A stretch of DNA of 63,516 nt. Origin: an uncultured Candidatus Saccharibacteria bacterium. GTDB lineage: Bacteria; Patescibacteriota; Minisyncoccia; Phycocordibacterales; UBA9973. Shown one piece after another: positions 6,216-63,516 of the stretch (the first letter of the stretch is position 1; every line of letters begins with the position of its first letter). The notes under the pieces are model-generated. The model saw nothing but the letters and a program-made list of their open reading frames with translations, did no database searches and was not told where the DNA came from. The stretch lies in contig CAYLKL010000001.1 in NCBI GenBank assembly GCA_964384645.1, positions 70,856-134,371 of the forward strand, read 5' to 3'. The position numbers were made by a program, and so were the translations under genes.

Positions 6216-8828
6216 CTATTTGCACATAGCTCCTGTGGCCGGCTTTGTTAAAACGCTATATTTACCAGTAGCATCAACACAAGCGTATTCACCAGTAGAA
6301 AGAGGGCTGAAGACAGAATATTCAGACGCAGTGCTTACACATTGAGCAGTTTTACTAACTGCAGACTGCAACCCCCTGCTAAATATCAAATAACTCTGAC
6401 TTCCACACAATCCTGAAAAAGAATTTTGATTTTCAGTTTTGTAAATTTTTGCAATATTAACAAAAGCCGTTATTGTTTCTTTTGTATAAACATCTTCTGA
6501 AATAGATTCCTTAGAACTAACGCAAGCAAGCGTTGAGCCTAAAACACCCGCTTCGTCTGAATCGGTAATTTTTGACTTGTCTACACAAAGATATTTATTG
6601 TCTGAATATTTAGCCCCAACCAAAAAACCAGAAGAACCATCTTTACAAATCGGTGTTATGTTTGGAGAAATAGTTTCAAGCTCTTTGAATCTACCTGAAA
6701 AACCCGAAGATGCATCTTGGCAAATTCCTGTAAAATTATTTTTATTAAGATTTTTAAAATTATTTGAGATACTCTGTAAATCAACAAAAATTTTTCTTAT
6801 TGAATCCTTAAGCTCCCCTTCCGCAAAAGAAATGTCACCGTTTGTAATTTCTGGCTTTATAAAATTACCAGGCAGAGAAATATCTTGTTTTTGATTATAA
6901 GAATTTATTTCTATATTCAAAGAACTAGTTGCAACATTTCCCATAGTGCTCAATACTGCAACAATCCTAACAGGTAATCCATTTTGATCAATCCATATTG
7001 TTCCCTCTTTTACCTCAACAGAACTTAACAAGTTTTTTATCTGATTCACAGAAGATTCATAACCACTCGAACCACTAGATAAAACAGACAACTGCTCTAG
7101 ATACAAACTTAACGCCTCCTTATTTAGCTCAAAAGAATACACATTTACATTATTGCCATTTATTTCTTCAGAACCTTTTTCGTAAACTAAAGTTAGAATT
7201 GGAAATTTACTAAAAAGTTGCCTAATACTAACTGCAGTTTTTTCGTCCAATACAGCGCCACTATCAGCAACTACCCCATTTGGCAGAGTTCCAGAAAGCA
7301 TGCTTGGTAAAAATGATTGAAAGAATGGCCCACCCAATTGAATCCATTGATTTTTGAAGGAAAAATCTTCGTATGTTGTGTACGCATAAGAAGCAGTATT
7401 AGTACTAACCACATTAAAGTTTAACTCTTTTCCATTTTTAATATTTACCTCAAAATTTGAAATTTTATTACTGGAATCAGAAACGTCTACAAATGCTTTT
7501 ATTTTAGCTGTTAATAAATTTGGATCTTCTGATGTTGGGAAGATTCCGCTCAAAACTGGACCACTGGCAGTAATCTCAAAATCAGCAGAAGAAACATTTT
7601 GGAAATTTTGCATAAACTTTGAGTCTTTAGATATACCTCGGTGGAAAAAAGTTAAATAACCATAACCAGCCCCACCTAAAATAATAAGAACTGCTAAAAT
7701 AATTCCTATTTTTTTTAAAAAACCCCCTCCCTTTTTTTCATCCTCGATAACATCATTTTCAATAATATTAGGATTTGCCTGACTAGCCATCTGAATTGGC
7801 ATTTTAGCTTGCGCCTCTCTCAATGTTGTACTCTCTGGTTTATTTTTTTGATACAAATCAGAAGGCACAACTCCAACAGGAGAAGCGACTCGTTCGCCCG
7901 AGGCAACACCCTGAGCTTCAGGTGTTGCAAATTTTCCATAACTTGATGGCTCCATTTTATTGAACTGAGTCTGTAAATTATTTCCAAAAACTTTTGGACC
8001 AAATGTTTTTGGTTTTAACATTGGTTGACCAATAGTCCTCCCCGCCTCTGTTGTTGTTTCTGGTTTTTTGTCAGAAAAAGTTAATGGTCCTGAGTCTTTT
8101 TTAGAAACTTCTGATGTATTTGTTGTTAGTGATTTATAAAAATCATTATTTGCATCAACCAGTGATTCTGGCTCTATCTTTATTTCTGGCTGTTTAACTT
8201 CGTTTGGTTGTATCACGGCACCAAATTGAACTTTTTTATCTGTCTGTATTTCACCAAGCGGTTTTGAACCAAAAGTTTTTGGCATAAAAACAGGACCTTC
8301 AGATTTTACTTCAATTGGTCGTATAGTATTTTTCTCATCAGTAACTGGCTCGGGCTGGGTGTCAGTTTGAAATTGTTGCTGAAGTTTTGGATTTATTTGA
8401 AATATTGGTTCTGGTCGACTAACGGCAACCGGCTCAACAACCGCCCGTGGTTGAATTTGTGGTTCGGCTATTGGTTCTGATTTAACAATAGGCTCACTTG
8501 CCTGTGTATTTTGTGCAGGTTGTGGTTGAAATGTTGTTTGTGGCGATTGAACTGGCTGAACACTTACTGGCTCGACTCGTGGCTGACTTATTTGTGGCTG
8601 AGAAAATCCTGATGTTTGCTGTGGCTGGGCACCTGAAAATCCTGGTCGCATAATGGACGCTACTTCACCTTGTGTATTTTGAGGCTTCGCACCTAACACT
8701 GTAGAAAAAGCCTGATCAACATCATCTTGTTTCCATTTATGATCTATTAAAATTTTTCTAACAGTTTCTTCAGAATGCCCAATCTCCAACTGCTTTTTAA
8801 TATACGATAGTAATTCTTCTGTAATCAT
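6216..8828 (-). CDS. Large bitopic envelope protein: helical N-domain, P/Q-rich linker, TM, extracytoplasmic domain, two Cys-rich pilin-like modules
   Basis: N-terminus YIKKQLEIGHSEETVRKIL...WKQDDVDQAF, TM IGIILAVLIILGGAGYGYL, and two similar modules ending YLCVDKSK and YACVDATG. Confidence 0.75.
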   Translation of the reverse strand: MITEELLSYIKKQLEIGHSEETVRKILIDHKWKQDDVDQAFSTVLGAKPQNTQGEVASIMRPGFSGAQPQQTSGFSQPQISQPRVEPVSVQPVQSPQTTFQPQPAQNTQASEPIVKSEPIAEPQIQPRAVVEPVAVSRPEPIFQINPKLQQQFQTDTQPEPVTDEKNTIRPIEVKSEGPVFMPKTFGSKPLGEIQTDKKVQFGAVIQPNEVKQPEIKIEPESLVDANNDFYKSLTTNTSEVSKKDSGPLTFSDKKPETTTEAGRTIGQPMLKPKTFGPKVFGNNLQTQFNKMEPSSYGKFATPEAQGVASGERVASPVGVVPSDLYQKNKPESTTLREAQAKMPIQMASQANPNIIENDVIEDEKKGGGFLKKIGIILAVLIILGGAGYGYLTFFHRGISKDSKFMQNFQNVSSADFEITASGPVLSGIFPTSEDPNLLTAKIKAFVDVSDSSNKISNFEVNIKNGKELNFNVVSTNTASYAYTTYEDFSFKNQWIQLGGPFFQSFLPSMLSGTLPNGVVADSGAVLDEKTAVSIRQLFSKFPILTLVYEKGSEEINGNNVNVYSFELNKEALSLYLEQLSVLSSGSSGYESSVNQIKNLLSSVEVKEGTIWIDQNGLPVRIVAVLSTMGNVATSSLNIEINSYNQKQDISLPGNFIKPEITNGDISFAEGELKDSIRKIFVDLQSISNNFKNLNKNNFTGICQDASSGFSGRFKELETISPNITPICKDGSSGFLVGAKYSDNKYLCVDKSKITDSDEAGVLGSTLACVSSKESISEDVYTKETITAFVNIAKIYKTENQNSFSGLCGSQSYLIFSRGLQSAVSKTAQCVSTASEYSVFSPLSTGEYACVDATGKYSVLTKPATGAMCK

Positions 8829-8859
8829 CTATATATAGTATAAACGATTTTTACTTTTT

Positions 8860-9264
8860 TTATTGTGGATTTTCGTTAATTCGCACATAAAGTTCAAATA
8901 ACTGCATTGCTTCTGGGTCTTGATTGTCTGTATAAACTGGAATTTTACCCAAACACAACTTCTGATCTTTTAACTCATCGCAATTTTTTTCACCCCCTAC
9001 TGTTACATTTATTTCTTTATTTGCAGAATTTTTATTGTACACAAAAACACCAACAACCTCTTTTCCATTTTTGCCACCAAACATTTCTTCAAACGCCCAA
9101 GTTGGTGGATACGGAAATTCTCTATTTTGATATTTAAAAGTCTCCCAAGTAGAAGTGAGTCCGTCTGTTGGAATAGTATCTTTTCGCTGCTTTAAAATAA
9201 AAGCGAAAATTCCAAGAACTACAATCACTAAAATAATTATTAAAAATTTTTTTGTCGAATCCAT
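8860..9264 (-). CDS. Hypothetical N-terminally anchored protein
   Basis: N-terminal TM followed by WETFKYQ...FPYPPTW. Confidence 0.65.
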   Translation of the reverse strand: MDSTKKFLIIILVIVVLGIFAFILKQRKDTIPTDGLTSTWETFKYQNREFPYPPTWAFEEMFGGKNGKEVVGVFVYNKNSANKEINVTVGGEKNCDELKDQKLCLGKIPVYTDNQDPEAMQLFELYVRINENPQ

Positions 9265-53218: not shown

Positions 53219-54525
53219 CTATTTAAACATAATTTTTAACTGCTCTATCTCTTGAGCAAGTAGTGGGTTGGTTTTAAGGTCGTCTTTTATTTTTAAGTAA
53301 GAGTGAATAACAGTGGTGTGATCTTTTCCCCCAAGTTTTTGACCGATTAATGGGTAAGATACGTTAAAGAATTCTCTTAATATGTACATAACAAGTTGCC
53401 TAACCTTAACAATTTCCTTTCTTCTTGTTTTTTCGTAAATTGAATTTTCATCTATGTTGTAATAGCCAGAAACAGCCTTAACTATATCTTTTACTACAAC
53501 CTGTTTTTTAGGTTTTATACTGTTTTTAATTAAACACTTTACATCATTTAAGGTTACGGTTTTGTTTTTTAATTGCCCATGACACACAACAGTGTTTAGG
53601 CTTCCTTCTAGCTCTCTAACGTTTCCTTGAACTATTTCAGCCATATAACTTAGAACATCTTCAGTTAGTTCTATTGGTGAAATTTTGGCTTTTTCTCTAA
53701 GGATAGCTAGTCTAGATTCAAACTCGGGTTGGTTAATGTCTATTATCATTCCAGCTTGGAAGCGAGATCTTAGTCGGTCTTCTAACCCATGTGCTTCCCT
53801 TTTTCGTATAAAGTATTGAATAAATGAAATAGTTCTTCTTGAGTTTTTTCCATTTTTCCAACAAATTGAATGTCGTCAACTATTAAAACGTCAAACTTTC
53901 TAAATTTTTCCTTGAAAGAGTTTGTTGAGTTGTTTGTAAAAGAAGTTACGAGTTCTGTCGCAAACTTCTCAAGAGTTGTGTAAATAACCTTTTTATCCTT
54001 GTGTTTTTCTTTAATAGCATTACCAATAGATTGTATTAAGTGAGTTTTTCCAAGGCCAGTATCTCCGTATATAAAGTATGGATTGTAGTTTAATCCTGGT
54101 TTGTCTACCACCGCATTAGCTGCAGCAAAAGCCATTTCGTTAAAAGGTCCAACAACTAAAGAATCAAAAGTGTATTTAGGGTTTAAATTGTCTTCTTTGT
54201 TTACATAAAGGTCGTGTAGAGGTAGTTCTCGAGAGCGATCGGTTAGAGAAGGTCCTTTAAGTAAGTTTGGTCTATCAAATTTAACAATTAGATACTCAAC
54301 GTTTCGAGTATCTTCAGAAAAGTTTATTAAAGTTTGAAGTATTAGCGTGTGGAATTTATTAGAAATCCAATCTCTTACGAATTCATTCGGTACTCCTATA
54401 AAAATAACACCAGATTCTTTCTTTACCAAGGATGTGTTTTTAAACCAAGTGTTAAAATTAGCTTTTGAAACGTTGCTTTCTATAACGTGAAGGCATTGAT
54501 TCCAAAGAGTATTGTATTCATTCAT
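53219..54525 (-). pseudogene. dnaA: Replication initiator DnaA, split by an apparent deletion/frameshift at about 53790
   Basis: GDTGLGKTHL and DDIQF in ORF 53782-54525. LEDRLRSRF and GGKDHTTV are in another frame. The QIVxSSDxxP segment is absent. Confidence 0.9.
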
Positions 54526-57896: not shown

Positions 57897-59504
57897 TTAT
57901 CTAGGCTCTACTCTTTTTATAAATTTAATTTTATTTTTGTACTCTGTAGTATTGTAAATTCCAACAGCATTGCCGGGTTCCCTACCGCTACCTCCGTGTG
58001 AGTCTGCTATTTTGCCATTGCCTACATATATAAGTACGTGGCGATTTCCAGATGTCCAACCGAGTAAGTCTCCTGGTTTTAGGGCTACCCCGTTTACTTC
58101 AGTGTTTGTTATTGAGTTTACACGTTCAGCATTACTAAAAATTGTTTGCGTTCCTCCATTAAATTCTTTATATCCAGAGTATCTTAGAACAAAATTAACA
58201 AATCCAGAGCAATCTAAACAAATAGTACCTGGTGGACAAAATGTTTTACAAGGTCCTATTGGAGGGCATTCTTTTGTTTCGTATTGGTATGGAGGGGGTG
58301 TTCCCTTTCCGCCAAATCGATAAGTTGTTTTGCCATTTAGTTTTGAAACTATAGAATAAACCAGATTTTCATTTGGAGTGCTCGGTATGTTGCAGTCTAT
58401 TCCAGTCGGACAACTAACCCCTGTTTGAGGAATTCCTACGTTCGTATCTCCAGAATATTCAATTTTAATTGTTTGTTTATCAAGTCTAAAATCAATTGTT
58501 ACAAGGTCTGGGTTTATTGTTATTAATATAAGATAAGACCCAAGTAATAGGACAAGCCCCTTTATTGCGTTTAGTATTTTTTTCTTACCTTCACCTTTTG
58601 AAATAAAAGAATCAGACATCATCCACTCTATTCCACCAAAAACAATCATAAATACAGCCATTGCAGCAGCGAGTCCAATAATAACTTTTATTAAATTGTT
58701 TACATAAGTACCAAGATTAAAGTCTGGACCAACCACGTTGCCTGGAACTACGCCAGGAATTGGCGCGAGTAACTCGTAACTATTGTCGTAACTGCTCGAT
58801 CCAGTTGTGAAAGGTGTTGGTGGTGGTGGCGTCGGTTCAAATGTTAGTTTGAAAAAACAGCGGCCGTTTGTTTCGTTTCCAGTTGTTGTTTTAAAATCAG
58901 CACGTGCTTGGTTGCAGGCTGTAATATCGTCATAGGGTCCTCTTTGGTCACTTGGGCCTGTTCCAAAGAAAAACCAAACAGCTTTTGCGTTTCCATAGTT
59001 TGTTCCAACAAATTCAAAATTTTCATCACAAAAAGCGTCACATTCGTATTTAAGCTCTCCGTTGGGTTTGCCCTCAGAAACATAGTTGTTTTCAACGTCG
59101 CCCTTTACTTCTATGTAAAAATAATCACAATCTAGGTTTGGCCTAATTTCGCATTCATCCTCTCCGGCCTTTAGTGTAATTTCCGTGAGGTTTGATGTAA
59201 TAACTTTTAATTTTAGGTTGTCTACCCCAGCAACCGCATCATCGTTTCCTATACCGTAATCATCTTCAAGTAAGCTTATGTCCAATTCTTTTCCGGAACA
59301 ATTTTCTGTTTCAATAACCATCTTTATCGTAGGCCTGTTCGTGTCAGAGTACCAAGCTTCAGGTTGTGTTCCCGCTGGTTGGAAATAAGCATTTTTTACA
59401 TTACACGGCGCCGTTGTAGATTGAGCGATTGAGGAATTATTAAAAGAAAGAAATAGTGTAAATATTCCTAAAACTATTAAACTAAAATTTAAAATCTTTT
59501 TCAT
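57897..59504 (-). CDS. CPR pilin (TrbC/VirB2-like) fused to an NlpC/P60 peptidase
   Basis: YELLAPIPG...GLAAAMAVFMIVFGGIEWM...INPDL, then YRFGG...LDCSGFV...PGDLL...HVLIYVG. Confidence 0.85.
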   Translation of the reverse strand: MKKILNFSLIVLGIFTLFLSFNNSSIAQSTTAPCNVKNAYFQPAGTQPEAWYSDTNRPTIKMVIETENCSGKELDISLLEDDYGIGNDDAVAGVDNLKLKVITSNLTEITLKAGEDECEIRPNLDCDYFYIEVKGDVENNYVSEGKPNGELKYECDAFCDENFEFVGTNYGNAKAVWFFFGTGPSDQRGPYDDITACNQARADFKTTTGNETNGRCFFKLTFEPTPPPPTPFTTGSSSYDNSYELLAPIPGVVPGNVVGPDFNLGTYVNNLIKVIIGLAAAMAVFMIVFGGIEWMMSDSFISKGEGKKKILNAIKGLVLLLGSYLILITINPDLVTIDFRLDKQTIKIEYSGDTNVGIPQTGVSCPTGIDCNIPSTPNENLVYSIVSKLNGKTTYRFGGKGTPPPYQYETKECPPIGPCKTFCPPGTICLDCSGFVNFVLRYSGYKEFNGGTQTIFSNAERVNSITNTEVNGVALKPGDLLGWTSGNRHVLIYVGNGKIADSHGGSGREPGNAVGIYNTTEYKNKIKFIKRVEPR

Positions 59505-60527
59505 TTAATTTCCTAAAACACTAATGTTTAAACTCCTGGTAGCCTTTTGGAAAATTTTCCCAAGGTTTGAAACTTCTAGTTGTATGTTTGATAAACCACT
59601 CCCCCCATCTCCTCTTACAATTATAAAACTTTTATAAGGTGGAGTTTCGATTGTTGTTCCATTAACTTTCCAGTTGTATTTTAAAGTTGGGTCGTTTTTG
59701 TTTTTTGGAGTTATAAAAAATGGTTCAGCTATTAGGTTGAAGTCATTTTGACCAACACTTACGCCATCATTCAATGCGTTCCAGAAATCAATACCTAGAC
59801 CATCTTTTTTTTGGTAGAACAGTATGATCGGGTTGTAAAATAGTAAATCTGTTTTTGCAGAAGAAACATAAGCGCCAGTAGAGTCTGTTGCCCTTACTTC
59901 TATTTTTTCGACTTGTTTTAGTGGGTCGTTTCTAAATGAGAAACTCTGTTTAGAAAAACCAGAAGAATTTGGAACATTGTCAAAATTTCGCTTCCAGCTA
60001 AAAGTTAGGTTTTTTTGAGAAGTAGTTGTTTGGTTCTTTCTATTAGGGATGGCTGTTATTTCAAGCAACGACTCTCTTGTCGGTAAAATTTTTCCTTTGT
60101 AGAGACTGTTCGTGTATCCATCGACTGTTTCCCATAGTATATCTATACTAGAAGGTTCTATTGTTACAGTTTTCTCGATCTGTAGTCCAGTACTTATATC
60201 TACTATTTTTGCTGTTACTGTTGTTTTTTTACCTAAAGGTCCTGTTGTTATAAGTAATTCCTTTAGCCCGGTTCCAGATCTTTCGATTTTGCCATCTATT
60301 CTCCACTCTATTTGTGTGTTATCTAAATTAACAAGAAAACTAGAAAGACTAATTTTTACTTCTTGGTTTTCTTCTGGAACTTCTGGGTTCATACTTATTG
60401 AGATATCGTTATCGTCTATAGCGGCGATATTTTGAGCTGTCGCATTTCCATAAAAAACAAAAAAAGAAAATAGTGCGAAAAATATAATTAAATTTCGTTT
60501 ATACATTACGTTTATTTTATCACGCAT
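59505..60527 (-). CDS. Secreted Ig-like repeat protein
   Basis: Signal peptide, PEVPEENQEVKISLSS, W..DG, LFYKGK-like LYKGK, and YNWKVNG. Confidence 0.75.
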   Translation of the reverse strand: MRDKINVMYKRNLIIFFALFSFFVFYGNATAQNIAAIDDNDISISMNPEVPEENQEVKISLSSFLVNLDNTQIEWRIDGKIERSGTGLKELLITTGPLGKKTTVTAKIVDISTGLQIEKTVTIEPSSIDILWETVDGYTNSLYKGKILPTRESLLEITAIPNRKNQTTTSQKNLTFSWKRNFDNVPNSSGFSKQSFSFRNDPLKQVEKIEVRATDSTGAYVSSAKTDLLFYNPIILFYQKKDGLGIDFWNALNDGVSVGQNDFNLIAEPFFITPKNKNDPTLKYNWKVNGTTIETPPYKSFIIVRGDGGSGLSNIQLEVSNLGKIFQKATRSLNISVLGN

Positions 60528-60557: not shown

Positions 60558-62381
60558 TTAACCCCCAGAAGCTTCTAGTTCTTCTTTTGATTTTTTTATT
60601 GCCAAAATTTGAGATGGGTCAGATGTTATTATTTGATCTTCTGTATATGAGGCAACAATTTGTATTGCCACATGCTTTAGCCCTGCAAAGAAAATTCCCT
60701 CACCTACTCCAGACTCTAGTAGTAGATATTTTTCTTCGTCTGTTAGGTTAAATGTCTTCTGAAGAACTTCCATGGTAGACGGAGATTGTTTAAGGAGTAT
60801 TTGAATTGAAGAGTTGGTTACAATAGGTACTCCATAGGGGCTTTTCATAAAGTCTCCAACGTCTTGAGTGATAGTACAAAGACCTAGGAAGTATTTTCGC
60901 CCCCTTTTGGCGATGGAATATAGAAAAGAGGCCGTGTCTTCAGATTTCATCATCCACCAAGCCTCGTCAACAACCAGAAGACGTTTTTTTAGTGTTCGTC
61001 GAACTGCATTCCAGATGAAGTGTGTGACTATATACATAGCTACAGGCTTTAGTTCGTCTTCCATGTCTCTAACAGAAAAGACTATAAATTTTTTGTTTAT
61101 ATCAACATTTGTAGGCTGGTTTATGAAAGTTGACCAACTTCCTCTTGTAAATTTTTGAAGTCGGGCAAGTATAGACTCAGAGCCTTCCATTCCAGAGAGA
61201 ACCATTTCAAAATCTGATAGGAGTGGTGGCTCTACGTTTGCAAAGTCTGATTCTGGGGTAATGTCTTTTATTGCGTAAGTTTCAGTAATAGCTCGGTCTA
61301 CAATAGAATCTTCTTCTGGAGTAAGGCCTCCAAGCATTATTCTAAAGAGACCAACTAGGTTGATTATGTTTGATCTCAAAACATCAGCCGCTGTCTCATC
61401 CTCTTTTGGGACAGGTAGGTCAAAAGGGTTTATGTGATGTTCTGATGAAAGTGAAATATTAAAATATCTACCACCAACAGCTTCAGATAAGTATTCATAT
61501 TCCCTTTCAGGGTCGATAACAATAACTTCAGTGTCGAACATTAAAGTTCGCAAAATTTCTAGTTTTGTTGCGTAAGATTTTCCAGAACCAGATTTTGCAA
61601 AAATTATAGAATTGTAGTTTTCAAGAGAAAATCTATCAAACAAAACAAGTGAAGAATTATGTCTGTTTATTCCGTACAAAATACCCTTGTCAGAATTGAG
61701 GTCAAAAGAAACAAATGGAAAAATAGAAGAAATTGGCGCGGTGTTTAGTTTTTGATGAACGGCAAGTTCGTCTGTTCCGGTTGGAATTGTAGATTTAAAA
61801 CCTTCAACTTGTTGGTAAAGTGCAGGTTTTATATATACTAGTTTTGATTCAAGTCTTGATTTTATTTCATTCTCAACTTTGTATAATTCTTCCTCTTTGT
61901 CTGCGTAGATGGTTATATATACACCAGCGTCAAAAAGTTTCTCTTCTGCCATTTGAAGCGAGTCTCTAAGTTCTTCAAGATTCCTAAATGCAGTATCAAG
62001 TAGAGGGTCTCGAACAAGACCTTTTTCTTCACGAACCATTATTTGACTTTGAACTTCGGCAACTTTTTTCTGGAAAGCCCGAAGAGCTTGAGAGGTATCT
62101 ACTGGGTGAACAAAAATTGATATATCGAATATTCTCTCCATGTTTATAATTGGAGTAAACCAATCTTCAGAAAGAGTGCTCGGGAAAGAAATAATGAAAT
62201 AAGTCCTAAGTATTTTGTCTCCAAGTCTTAGGTATCGAGGTTCTATTTTAAGAGCTTCGGGAGCAATTAGGTCTTCAAAACTCAAAGATGCAGCTCTGTA
62301 CATTTCAGCAGGCAAAACAGGCACAGGTATTGTGCTCGCTTCCCCTTTTTTCTTTCCGAATAATGAATCAAAAATTCCCAT
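60558..62381 (-). CDS. VirB4-like ATPase
   Basis: AKSGSGKS, VIDPEREY, INPFD, VDEAW, KRGRKY, and TQD. Confidence 0.92.
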   Translation of the reverse strand: MGIFDSLFGKKKGEASTIPVPVLPAEMYRAASLSFEDLIAPEALKIEPRYLRLGDKILRTYFIISFPSTLSEDWFTPIINMERIFDISIFVHPVDTSQALRAFQKKVAEVQSQIMVREEKGLVRDPLLDTAFRNLEELRDSLQMAEEKLFDAGVYITIYADKEEELYKVENEIKSRLESKLVYIKPALYQQVEGFKSTIPTGTDELAVHQKLNTAPISSIFPFVSFDLNSDKGILYGINRHNSSLVLFDRFSLENYNSIIFAKSGSGKSYATKLEILRTLMFDTEVIVIDPEREYEYLSEAVGGRYFNISLSSEHHINPFDLPVPKEDETAADVLRSNIINLVGLFRIMLGGLTPEEDSIVDRAITETYAIKDITPESDFANVEPPLLSDFEMVLSGMEGSESILARLQKFTRGSWSTFINQPTNVDINKKFIVFSVRDMEDELKPVAMYIVTHFIWNAVRRTLKKRLLVVDEAWWMMKSEDTASFLYSIAKRGRKYFLGLCTITQDVGDFMKSPYGVPIVTNSSIQILLKQSPSTMEVLQKTFNLTDEEKYLLLESGVGEGIFFAGLKHVAIQIVASYTEDQIITSDPSQILAIKKSKEELEASGG

Positions 62382-63094: not shown

Positions 63095-63511
63095 TTATTC
63101 TTCGGTTGGTTTGTTTATGTCTTGGACGTCTAGATTCCAAGAAAGGTCTTTTAATTTACTATTTGATAATTTCGGTATGAAACTTTTTATATCTCCCGGA
63201 TCAAGGTCTGATGTTTTTGTTTCTTTCTTCGGTTCACTCTTTTTCCAAAGGTATAACTTGCTTTGTAGTTTGTATGTTACCCATGCGTTCACTATGAAAA
63301 TAAAAGGTTTTCCATTTATTTTGTAAAAAGCTAAAGCCAAAGAAAGAAGGACTATTGGAGCGCCAACAATAAAAGCTAGAAAGCCTGGTAGAAATCTGAA
63401 AATTATATAAACCATCCCTGCCCCTCCACCTAAATAAGCAAATTGTTTAAAAGTAAGAGGCCCAAAAAGTTTATCTTCAACGTCTATGAATTGAGGAACT
63501 TTAAATTGCAT
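63095..63511 (-). CDS. PrgI family protein
   Basis: QFKVPQFIDVEDKLFGPLTFKQF, two TMs, and KINGKPF. Confidence 0.88.
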   Translation of the reverse strand: MQFKVPQFIDVEDKLFGPLTFKQFAYLGGGAGMVYIIFRFLPGFLAFIVGAPIVLLSLALAFYKINGKPFIFIVNAWVTYKLQSKLYLWKKSEPKKETKTSDLDPGDIKSFIPKLSNSKLKDLSWNLDVQDINKPTEE

Positions 63512-63516
63512 GACAT

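Follow-up and report, generated by a model that had tools for sequence, protein, structure and literature searches.

Introduction

Patescibacteria carry chromosomal type IV secretion systems (T4SSs) of an MPF-FATA-like kind that have no relaxase, include VirB2-like pilins and lie near dnaA, dnaN, rnpA and ksgA (Quinonero-Coronel et al. 2025, PMC12102498; Wang et al. 2023, PMC10633639). In a Saccharibacterium, such a T4SS is essential for epibiotic growth and is made without DNA-processing parts (PMC10633639), and what an essential Patescibacteria machine that is incompetent for DNA transfer actually does has yet to be settled (PMC10633639, PMC12857230). The T4SSs of Gram-positive bacteria depend on a dedicated wall hydrolase tethered to the membrane, for example Orf14, CwlT, PrgK or TraG (cited in PMC12102498). 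In Paceibacteria, "VirB1" profiles of the NlpC/P60 type are associated with VirB4 (PMC12102498). Here we describe a gene in a locus of this type, located on contig C1 of genome G000 from an ultra-small Patescibacteria bacterium, whose single predicted product joins a VirB2-type pilin to an NlpC/P60 peptidase domain. The analysis covered a 63,516-nt stretch of this contig (the window); positions are window coordinates, and amino acids (aa) are numbered in the encoded 535-aa protein, referred to as the focal protein.

The chromosomal, relaxase-less apparatus next to oriC is already published (PMC12102498, PMC10633639). The fusion itself is latent in a supplementary table of PMC12102498, in which a Nomurabacteria protein two genes past VirB4 is named "VirB2" and its cluster is assigned PF00877; in full-text literature searches, no paper was found to describe in its text the fusion of a pilin with a hydrolase in these systems. 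What is new here is the completed locus, strain-level recombination with a recurrent junction as judged from synonymous divergence, the independent assortment of the passenger domains, the LAS/Hedgehog-fold identity of a cassette that is invisible to Pfam, and a tally with one genome per genus.

Results

A pilin of the T4SS locus with a predicted peptidase domain

The focal gene begins with an ATG that has AGGA 7 nt on its 5´ side, and its product has four parts from N- to C-terminus: a Sec signal, an eight-Cys beta-sandwich, a VirB2-type two-helix pilin module (PF18895) and an NlpC/P60 domain. The features, with the evidence for each, are as follows (dN, nonsynonymous divergence; dS, synonymous divergence; L001 and L004, loci of close relatives):

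57897..59504 (-), focal gene, a modular pilin-peptidase; single open reading frame (ORF), 535 aa, ATG start
59424..59504 (-), Sec signal peptide, aa 1-27, a hydrophobic segment read from the sequence; cleavage probably after SIA, before QS
58839..59423 (-), eight-Cys beta-sandwich passenger domain, aa 28-222; AlphaFold2 strands at aa 35-168 and weak Foldseek matches to Ig-like adhesin repeats
59079-59369 (-), hypervariable patch in the beta-sandwich, aa 46-142; loss of homology and dN of 0.56 versus L004
58500..58784 (-), VirB2-type pilin module, aa 241-335, running Y-x-LLAPIPG, helix 1, Lys-rich loop, helix 2, INPDLV; PF18895, helices and motifs
58461..58469 (-), recurrent recombination junction, aa 346-348, right after DFRLDKQTI; end of homology versus L001 and dS drop versus L004
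57900..58370 (-), NlpC/P60 (C40) peptidase domain, aa 379-535; PF00877, invariant residues, predicted local distance difference test (pLDDT) > 90 and PDB profile matches
58209-58211 (-), Cys432, NlpC/P60 catalytic residue
58038-58040 (-), His489, NlpC/P60 catalytic residue
58002-58004 (-), Asp501, third NlpC/P60 residue

An initial annotation, made from the sequence alone, had read this ORF as a signal peptide, a Cys-rich domain, a two-helix pilin module and an NlpC/P60 domain, and this architecture was borne out by the Pfam matches, by a structural model and by the Cys count, with eight Cys residues falling within aa 34-216. The modelling, which the same annotation had proposed, was carried out with AlphaFold2 (34 homologues; mean pLDDT 76) and gave, after a signal helix, a beta-sandwich at aa 35-168 and then a helical hairpin (264-296/303-330) whose loop is Lys-rich; the C-terminal domain was predicted with pLDDT > 90. 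Hydropathy revealed the same two hydrophobic helices, with SKGEGKKK as the loop between them. By the positive-inside rule, the Lys-rich loop would be cytoplasmic, with the beta-sandwich and the NlpC/P60 domain both outside the membrane. Foldseek searches with the full 535-aa model returned weak matches only (a phage endolysin at E 7e-3 and Ig-like adhesin repeats at ~0.03), which we take to suggest a beta-sandwich plus a papain-like domain and nothing finer.

The central part of the protein has the layout of VirB2-type pilins, in which two hydrophobic helices come after a signal peptide and are linked by a short basic loop; the protein departs from the small-pilin layout in its length of 535 aa and in the ~200-aa domains on either side of the hairpin. 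The PF18895 match of the focal protein itself is borderline, at 25.3 bits by hmmscan (just short of the 26.6 cut-off) and 29.1 bits, above the cut-off, in a six-frame search; the family as a whole is clear, PF18895 being matched by 93/99 and 31/36 relatives with the same module in the two sets described below, a few of which also match PF04956 (TrbC). The Y-x-LLAPIPG and INPDLV motifs are near-invariant across these 99 and 36 relatives, and free-standing members of the subfamily, 130-180 aa long, start at Y-x-LLAPLPG just past the signal peptide and end soon after INPxLL. The hairpin and its two flanking motifs are thus a self-contained pilin unit to which the passengers are joined via low-complexity linkers. 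In conjugative pili, the basic inter-helix loop faces the inner side of the membrane and later the pilus lumen, with the termini outward, and C-terminal processing is known for the VirB2-type pilins TrbC and TrhA (PMC11722321).

In the C-terminal part, PF00877 (NLPC_P60) matched aa 394-503 with 29.8 bits against a cut-off of 23. The intact Cys (DCSG) and His (HVLIY) that had been pointed out in the initial annotation correspond to Cys432 and His489, each invariant in 30/30 NlpC/P60-bearing homologues, and position 501 is D, E or N in 29/30. When the C-terminal domain was compared with the PDB as a single sequence (phmmer), matches were marginal, the best at E 5e-3. A profile of 20 domain sequences matched CwlO (7e-10) and the YkfC-like structure 3h41 (7.5e-10), and also RipA/B and MepS. 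The Tn916-like hydrolase structures 9ubf and 4hpe, together with the S. aureus NLP/P60 lipoprotein-like 4fdy, which we take to be CwlT-like, were matched at E 8e-4 to 4e-3, weaker than CwlO. We read the domain as a predicted enzyme, a peptidase with an intact Cys-His-Asp triad that groups with gamma-D-Glu-diamino-acid D,L-endopeptidases. It is the sole NLPC_P60 domain of the genome (726 kb, 95.8% complete) and the only recognisable hydrolase of the locus as completed below.

Homologues that combine the pilin with NlpC/P60 were found in genomes labelled Pacebacteria, Nomurabacteria and Uhrbacteria. In the Uhrbacteria relative L005, a DsbA/thioredoxin gene (8340-8996 of that locus) lies directly 5´ of the pilin-NlpC/P60 gene, an arrangement in keeping with extracytoplasmic passenger domains rich in disulfides.

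A common junction for the exchange of enzyme cassettes and 5´ alleles

The loci of close relatives are gene-for-gene like the window, and the closest relatives of the N-terminal two-thirds of the focal protein bear different C-termini. In P0006 and P0008 the C-terminus is a YkuD domain (Pfam 7.7e-13). The cassette of P0005 and P0007 gave no Pfam match and no PDB sequence match; its 15 homologues, all of them on pilin proteins, have invariant His88, Asp95 and His156. A Foldseek search with a model of this cassette (pLDDT 81) returned Hedgehog N-terminal domains (E 9e-4, probability 1.0) and E. coli MepA, and on the basis of the model we assign it to the LAS zinc-peptidase (LAS/Hedgehog) fold. 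A single genus-level clade thus holds three enzyme classes on pilin modules that are 88-90% identical. At the DNA level, the window is homologous to L001 as far as 58468 and again from 57903 onward, so that the break (57904-58467) takes in only the last 190 codons. Homology is back at the focal stop codon, the neighbouring genes are unchanged, and the 421-aa gene on the 3´ side is 64-98% identical whatever the cassette.

A comparison with L004 gave the complementary picture. DnaN and PBP1A of this strain are 100% identical to those of the window and YidC is 99.6% identical, with the focal protein at only 80%. By Nei-Gojobori estimates, dS between the window and L004 is 0 to 0.07 for dnaN, pbp1a, yidC, jag and the 421-aa gene. 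Within the focal gene, dS is 0.36-0.38 for aa 2-45, saturated for aa 46-142 (dN 0.56), 1.75 for aa 143-235 and 0.42 for aa 236-348, and it returns to background, 0.064, for aa 349-535. DNA homology to L004 is lost exactly across 59077-59369. Because dS is high in aa 2-348 and at background in both aa 349-535 and the flanking genes, the 5´ two-thirds of the focal gene is an imported allele, with its breakpoint again at the pilin/enzyme junction. Since the end of L001 homology and the drop in dS versus L004 coincide at aa 346-348, we conclude that enzyme cassettes and 5´ alleles have both been exchanged there.

The N-terminal alleles fall into types that are not tied to one enzyme: type A was seen with NlpC/P60, YkuD and LAS, and type B with NlpC/P60 and LAS. 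G001, a more distant genome of the same genus (89.5% DNA identity over the region), has the window's own allele type and is identical at 93/97 positions of the variable patch. The combinations of allele and enzyme, together with the allele shared by G001, indicate that the modules are reassorted independently of genome relatedness.

Pilin modules with varied wall enzymes, or none

The initial annotation had also suggested surveying the domain architectures of pilins of the candidate phyla radiation, and the survey turned up the pilin module with varied wall enzymes or with none. Using phmmer, the pilin module (aa 236-350) was compared with 1.84 billion representatives, giving 14,906 clusters at E <= 1e-3 and 3,603 at E <= 1e-10. 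Among the proteins collected, the module occurs just once in 196, of which 166 extend at least 100 aa beyond it. For 99 of the collected module proteins, Pfam matches were tallied as T4SS_pilin (93/99), NLPC_P60 (9/99), Peptidase_M15_4 (7/99), VanY (7/99), SLT (5/99, plus 3 SLT-like), YkuD (4/99), Amidase_5 (2/99) and Amidase_2 (1/99).

A second survey took one genome per genus from the same family and order (41 genomes, 38 loci fetched). The module was present in 39/41 genomes, just 5 of which match via NlpC/P60. It lies 0.9-2.6 kb from VirB4 in 32/38 loci, the remaining 6 being cut by contig ends, and 33/38 loci have a C-terminal extension of at least 138 aa. Typing of the extensions of 36 genes gave:

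7/36, an unnamed type ending in an H-W-H motif
6/36, LAS-like
5/36, NlpC/P60
4/36, VanY/M15
3/36, lysozyme-like, by motif only
2/36, YkuD
SLT, 1 clear (3 in the Pfam tally), plus 1 weak transglycosylase-like
1/36, CHAP-like, weak
6/36, singletons of no assigned type

Altogether 16/36 extensions, including the seven-member H-W-H cluster, have no family assignment, and there are at least six clear enzyme classes across the order. In L033, L034, L036 and L041, the slot is occupied by a plain pilin of 124-166 aa that lies between the same ~340-aa and ~410-470-aa neighbours, with no separate hydrolase gene evident near it. This amounts to 4/37 genera, L039 being cut by a contig end.

Pilin modules were also seen in other settings. 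Away from the T4SS locus, contig C4 of G000 has five VirB2-like pilin genes in tandem (68077-71602; 514, 257, 127, 131 and 115 aa), the first with a large repeat-rich N-terminal domain and the second with a Gly/Ser/Asp repeat; all five are candidate major pilins. Among the homologues, P0073 (1147 aa), P0077 (1775 aa), P0078 and P0079 each have 5 to 15 tandem pilin modules in one polypeptide, with ~10 in P0073 and in P0079 and the module pattern C..I....Q..G..A...AG.KWM.SDDPE.R..AK. By their sequences, these proteins look like "poly-pilin" polyproteins.

The operon and the completed locus

The focal gene is the fifth of six co-oriented genes at the end of the window, two genes downstream of VirB4. 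The other five are:

63095..63511 (-), PrgI/VirB3-like small membrane protein, the first operon gene inside the window; PF12666, 42.6 bits
62452..63093 (-), TraC-like/TrsD-like protein, 213 aa; NCBIfam VirB4_plasma N-terminal region and TrsD, with PF26593 (TraC-like) in orthologues
60558..62381 (-), VirB4-family ATPase, 607 aa; conju_CD1110, 376.7 bits (NCBIfam), and P-loop_TraG, 93.4 bits (Pfam)
59505..60527 (-), secreted 340-aa protein, the conserved upstream partner of the pilin gene; N-terminal signal-like segment
56630..57895 (-), membrane-anchored 421-aa protein, the last operon gene and conserved downstream partner, convergent with jag; synteny in relatives

ORF calls and profiles agree with the gene order given in the initial annotation (PrgI, TraC-like, VirB4, the 340-aa protein, the focal protein and the 421-aa protein). 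The stop codon of the preceding gene abuts the focal ATG and the 421-aa gene begins one base past the focal stop codon, and for this reason the six genes read as one translationally coupled operon. A promoter and terminator scan of the operon did no better than on shuffled sequence. VirB4 is split into a 213-aa N-terminal piece and a 607-aa ATPase in G000 and in all relatives examined, so the two-gene VirB4 is a conserved split and not a pseudogene. There was no Pfam or NCBIfam match for the 340-aa neighbour and no Pfam match for the 421-aa neighbour, so that the labels "Ig-like" and "propeller", which the initial annotation had given to these two, gained no support from the profiles. In L005, a 408-aa protein just 5´ of the pilin gene, with faint propeller matches only, is a possible counterpart of the latter.

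The window ends where contig C1 ends, and contig C12 overlaps this end by 55 bases and carries the operon onward. Outward from PrgI, C12 encodes proteins of 169, 824, 675, 290 and 119 aa, none of which has a Pfam match, followed by ksgA; the 824-aa protein is polytopic with a coiled-coil tail and is VirB6-like by appearance. On the other flank of the operon are jag, yidC, rnpA, dnaA and dnaN, so that the completed locus spans ksgA to jag/yidC/rnpA/dnaA and adjoins core oriC genes in the chromosome, as had been noted for the window in the initial annotation. That annotation had also noted the absence of a relaxase or coupling protein from the window and had proposed a search of the flanking sequence for VirD4 or a relaxase. 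When the search was taken across the contig break, neither was present in the completed locus, nor was a Rep_trans or integrase-like gene, and profile searches for Relaxase (PF03432) and Rep_trans (PF02486) found no match anywhere in the genome.

Two ORFs on other contigs match TraG-D_C (PF12696) and are coupling-protein-like (T4CP-like; VirD4/TrwB-like) ATPases outside the locus. They lie far from VirB4, on contig C3 at ~11.7 kb (912 aa) and on contig C7 at ~29.7 kb (716 aa), and both are without obvious N-terminal membrane helices; the 716-aa protein has a long Pro/Gln-rich tail. A six-frame search of the genome for PF02534 gave no match, and by hmmscan the 716-aa ORF is above the cut-offs of TrwB_AAD_bind and T4SS-DNA_transf (PF02534, 22.4 bits versus 20.1). 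Given this ORF, the absence of VirD4 applies to the locus and not to the whole genome.

The loci of L001, L002 and L007 occupy the same origin-proximal site as the window, L004 (cut 5´ of the focal gene) agrees on the dnaA side, and in L006 the same cluster adjoins jag/yidC. The pilin gene is co-oriented with PrgI, TraC-like and VirB4 in L006 and L007 too; in L005 it lies on the other strand from VirB4, ~5.7 kb away. In L001, L002 and L007, the gene directly 5´ of the pilin gene encodes a protein of 334-341 aa, and in L006 a 315-aa protein is encoded two genes upstream. Among the relatives that hold VirB4 (L001 and L002), its identity is 94.6-97.7%, as for core genes, with L001 at 97.7%.

Two further observations concern the ends of the region. 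A 20-bp inverted repeat, perfectly matched around a 3-nt loop and centred on TATAAT, spans the junction between C12 (~40-85) and the window (63511-63516) and takes in the start codon of PrgI; L008, a genome of the same genus, has it unchanged, and L002 has it with compensatory changes. The repeat is a candidate operator or promoter of the PrgI-VirB4-pilin operon, and it probably accounts for the assembly break at the C1/C12 junction. On the other side, dnaA (53219-54525, (-)) is broken at ~53792 into two ORFs (247 aa and 176 aa) by a 37-nt deletion, as judged against L004, a near-identical strain whose dnaA is intact (447 aa). The split may be an artefact of the assembly or of the population, or else a true frameshift in an essential gene.

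Discussion

On balance, we favour, with only slightly better than even confidence, a reading in which the focal protein is the pilin of the locus and delivers an endopeptidase for stem peptides to the very point at which the peptidoglycan is crossed by the machine or its pilus. The focal gene would then encode the locus-resident VirB2-type pilin, with two passenger domains, of a chromosomal, non-conjugative T4SS of the Paceibacteria type found in Patescibacteria. Since the pilin module would dock the protein to the VirB4/VirB6-like machine, or be taken into that machine, the peptidase would act where the apparatus passes, cutting peptidoglycan stem peptides at the passage point of the apparatus or pilus. 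Such cutting is the job of VirB1, or of Orf14/CwlT/PrgK among Gram-positive systems. Being carried on the pilin, the enzyme could also travel outward to a host wall. We consider a VirB1-like role, on the wall of the producing cell itself, no less likely than a role on the host wall; the enzyme's being the sole hydrolase of the locus, the Orf14/CwlT-like operon position, the short linker and the lack of an immunity gene are points for the own wall.

Several results count against this reading. PF18895 is borderline on the focal protein when run by hmmscan (aa 264-321, 25.3 bits versus a cut-off of 26.6), and with ~200 aa on each end of the hairpin a homopolymeric pilus is unlikely, so that the hairpin could be a mere membrane anchor. 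The NlpC/P60 domain is no nearer to Tn916-type T4SS hydrolases than to general P60 enzymes. The enzyme also seems not to be universally needed for assembly in cis, since 4/37 genera hold a plain pilin in the slot. Finally, exchange among enzyme classes that cut different bonds would be odd for purely self-directed housekeeping.

The last point fits better with a possibility that we regard as tentative, in which the T4SS pilus or the cell surface displays the protein as a minor subunit or tip subunit that acts as a host-directed "warhead", the hypervariable N-terminal beta-sandwich binding the host surface and the enzyme breaching host peptidoglycan at the site of contact. Cassette swapping would then follow host wall chemistry or host inhibitors. 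The exchange, between close relatives, of classes that cut different bonds speaks for this reading, as do the three classes within one genus-level clade and the six or more across the order. The N-terminal domain has been replaced by recombination between near-clonal strains, with allele types that do not track relatedness, and the enzyme is dispensable in some genera. Both termini of VirB2-type pilins point away from the lumen-facing loop (PMC11722321), and the T4SS is essential for epibiotic growth in Saccharibacteria (PMC10633639). However, incorporation into a pilus is an assumption of this reading, and a protein that remained in the membrane would have a linker of only ~45 aa between helix 2 and the enzyme. 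With PBP1A encoded in the window, the cell builds peptidoglycan of its own, on which all of the enzymes would act too, and yet no immunity gene co-varies with the cassette.

A broader form of the same idea, which we put forward with similar reserve, is that Paceibacteria use the pilin of the T4SS locus as a modular display scaffold, a recombination-shuffled N-terminal binder and an interchangeable C-terminal wall enzyme (NlpC/P60, LAS/Hedgehog-fold, YkuD, VanY/M15 or SLT) being carried on the pilus or its tip to recognise the host cell and open its wall locally. If this were true, the combination of N-terminal domain and enzyme cassette would be a strain-level determinant of the host range of the epibionts. 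The strain-level hypervariability of the N-terminal domain and the swapping of enzymes also lend indirect support to the initial annotation's suggestion of a host-contact apparatus carrying a wall-lytic enzyme.

We think it improbable that the protein is an ordinary membrane-anchored autolysin, with the hairpin as a two-pass, holin-like anchor, a role in growth or division, and an incidental position in the T4SS locus. Such an enzyme would be in keeping with the single NLPC_P60 domain of the 726-kb genome and with the borderline pilin score. Yet the slot beside VirB4 is kept in 32/38 genera and is filled by a plain pilin in some, the hairpin with its Y-x-LLAPLPG and INPxL motifs matches the free-standing 130-180 aa pilins, and a housekeeping enzyme would not be traded for YkuD, LAS and SLT between close relatives.

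It is very unlikely that the protein is the wall hydrolase of an ordinary integrative and conjugative element whose relaxase, oriT and coupling protein lie beyond the window. The VirB4 is of the CD1110/Tn916-like class and there are two T4CP-like ATPases elsewhere in the genome; nevertheless, this reading was rejected once the locus had been completed across the contig break, as it is bounded by ksgA and jag/yidC/rnpA/dnaA and holds no relaxase, Rep_trans or integrase-like gene. The site and gene order shared by L001, L002 and L007, with which L004 and L006 are consistent, the presence of the module in 39/41 genomes and the core-gene-like VirB4 identity (94.6-97.7%) also argue against it, and the pattern is published as that of a vertically kept Patescibacteria clade (PMC12102498). 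A prophage lysis cassette of holin and endolysin was rejected on the fixed T4SS synteny in 32/38 genera, and a classical toxin-immunity system on the finding that no gene co-varies with the cassette.

Together, these observations point to a modular wall-cutting tool on a machine that these bacteria probably use to live on other cells. The joining of pilin and enzyme, and its reshuffling among near-clonal strains, give a testable handle on the role of the T4SS: the favoured reading predicts the site where the machine meets peptidoglycan, the soluble domains can be assayed on defined sacculi, and the cassette type is a genetic marker that can be correlated with hosts in metagenomes. A VirB2-type pilin with passengers is rare and bears on how pilins are extracted and assembled in a monoderm envelope.

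Comparison with known systems

The locus is like the chromosomal T4SSs described for Patescibacteria in having PrgI, TrsD/TraC-like and VirB4 proteins, a VirB2-like pilin, a VirB6-like polytopic protein upstream and no relaxase, all in the vicinity of dnaA, dnaN, rnpA and ksgA. The papers on these systems (PMC12102498, PMC10633639) treat pilins and VirB1-like hydrolases separately, and their text has no fusion, passenger architecture or cassette exchange. In Southlakia epibionticum (SEML1_0006-0019; PMC10633639), a six-gene array of short pilins lies inside the cluster, whereas here the fusion is the only pilin of the locus and the short array is on contig C4.

Like the MPF-FATA hydrolases (Orf14 of Tn916, CwlT of ICEBs1, PrgK of pCF10 and TraG of pIP501), which are NlpC/P60- or CHAP-type enzymes, the focal enzyme is encoded in a T4SS operon downstream of VirB4. 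Those hydrolases are exported, membrane-tethered and presumed to open the wall for the channel, and export is predicted for the focal protein too. They differ in having a single N-terminal anchor or signal, usually with an added muramidase or SLT domain, and in not being traded for other enzyme classes between close relatives. We know of no Orf14/CwlT/PrgK/TraG-type hydrolase with a VirB2-like hairpin or a variable N-terminal domain.

With the VirB2/TrbC/TraA pilins, the focal protein shares the signal peptide, the two hydrophobic helices with a short basic loop and the location next to VirB4; its PF18895 match is borderline, whereas that of most of its relatives is clear. Those pilins are ~70-130 aa when mature and have no enzymatic or adhesin domains; the focal protein has ~200 aa on each side of the module and is a putative subunit of a polymer.

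The organization also resembles that of polymorphic toxins and effectors (Rhs, CDI and LXG; Tae and Tlde1 of the type VI secretion system), in which a conserved delivery part is followed, after a sharp exchange point, by an interchangeable C-terminal enzyme, and whose classes include NlpC/P60-like and YkuD-like peptidoglycan enzymes. Unlike in those systems, no adjacent immunity gene is swapped with the cassette and the downstream gene stays orthologous, and the carrier would be a structural pilin of the machine rather than a secreted substrate.

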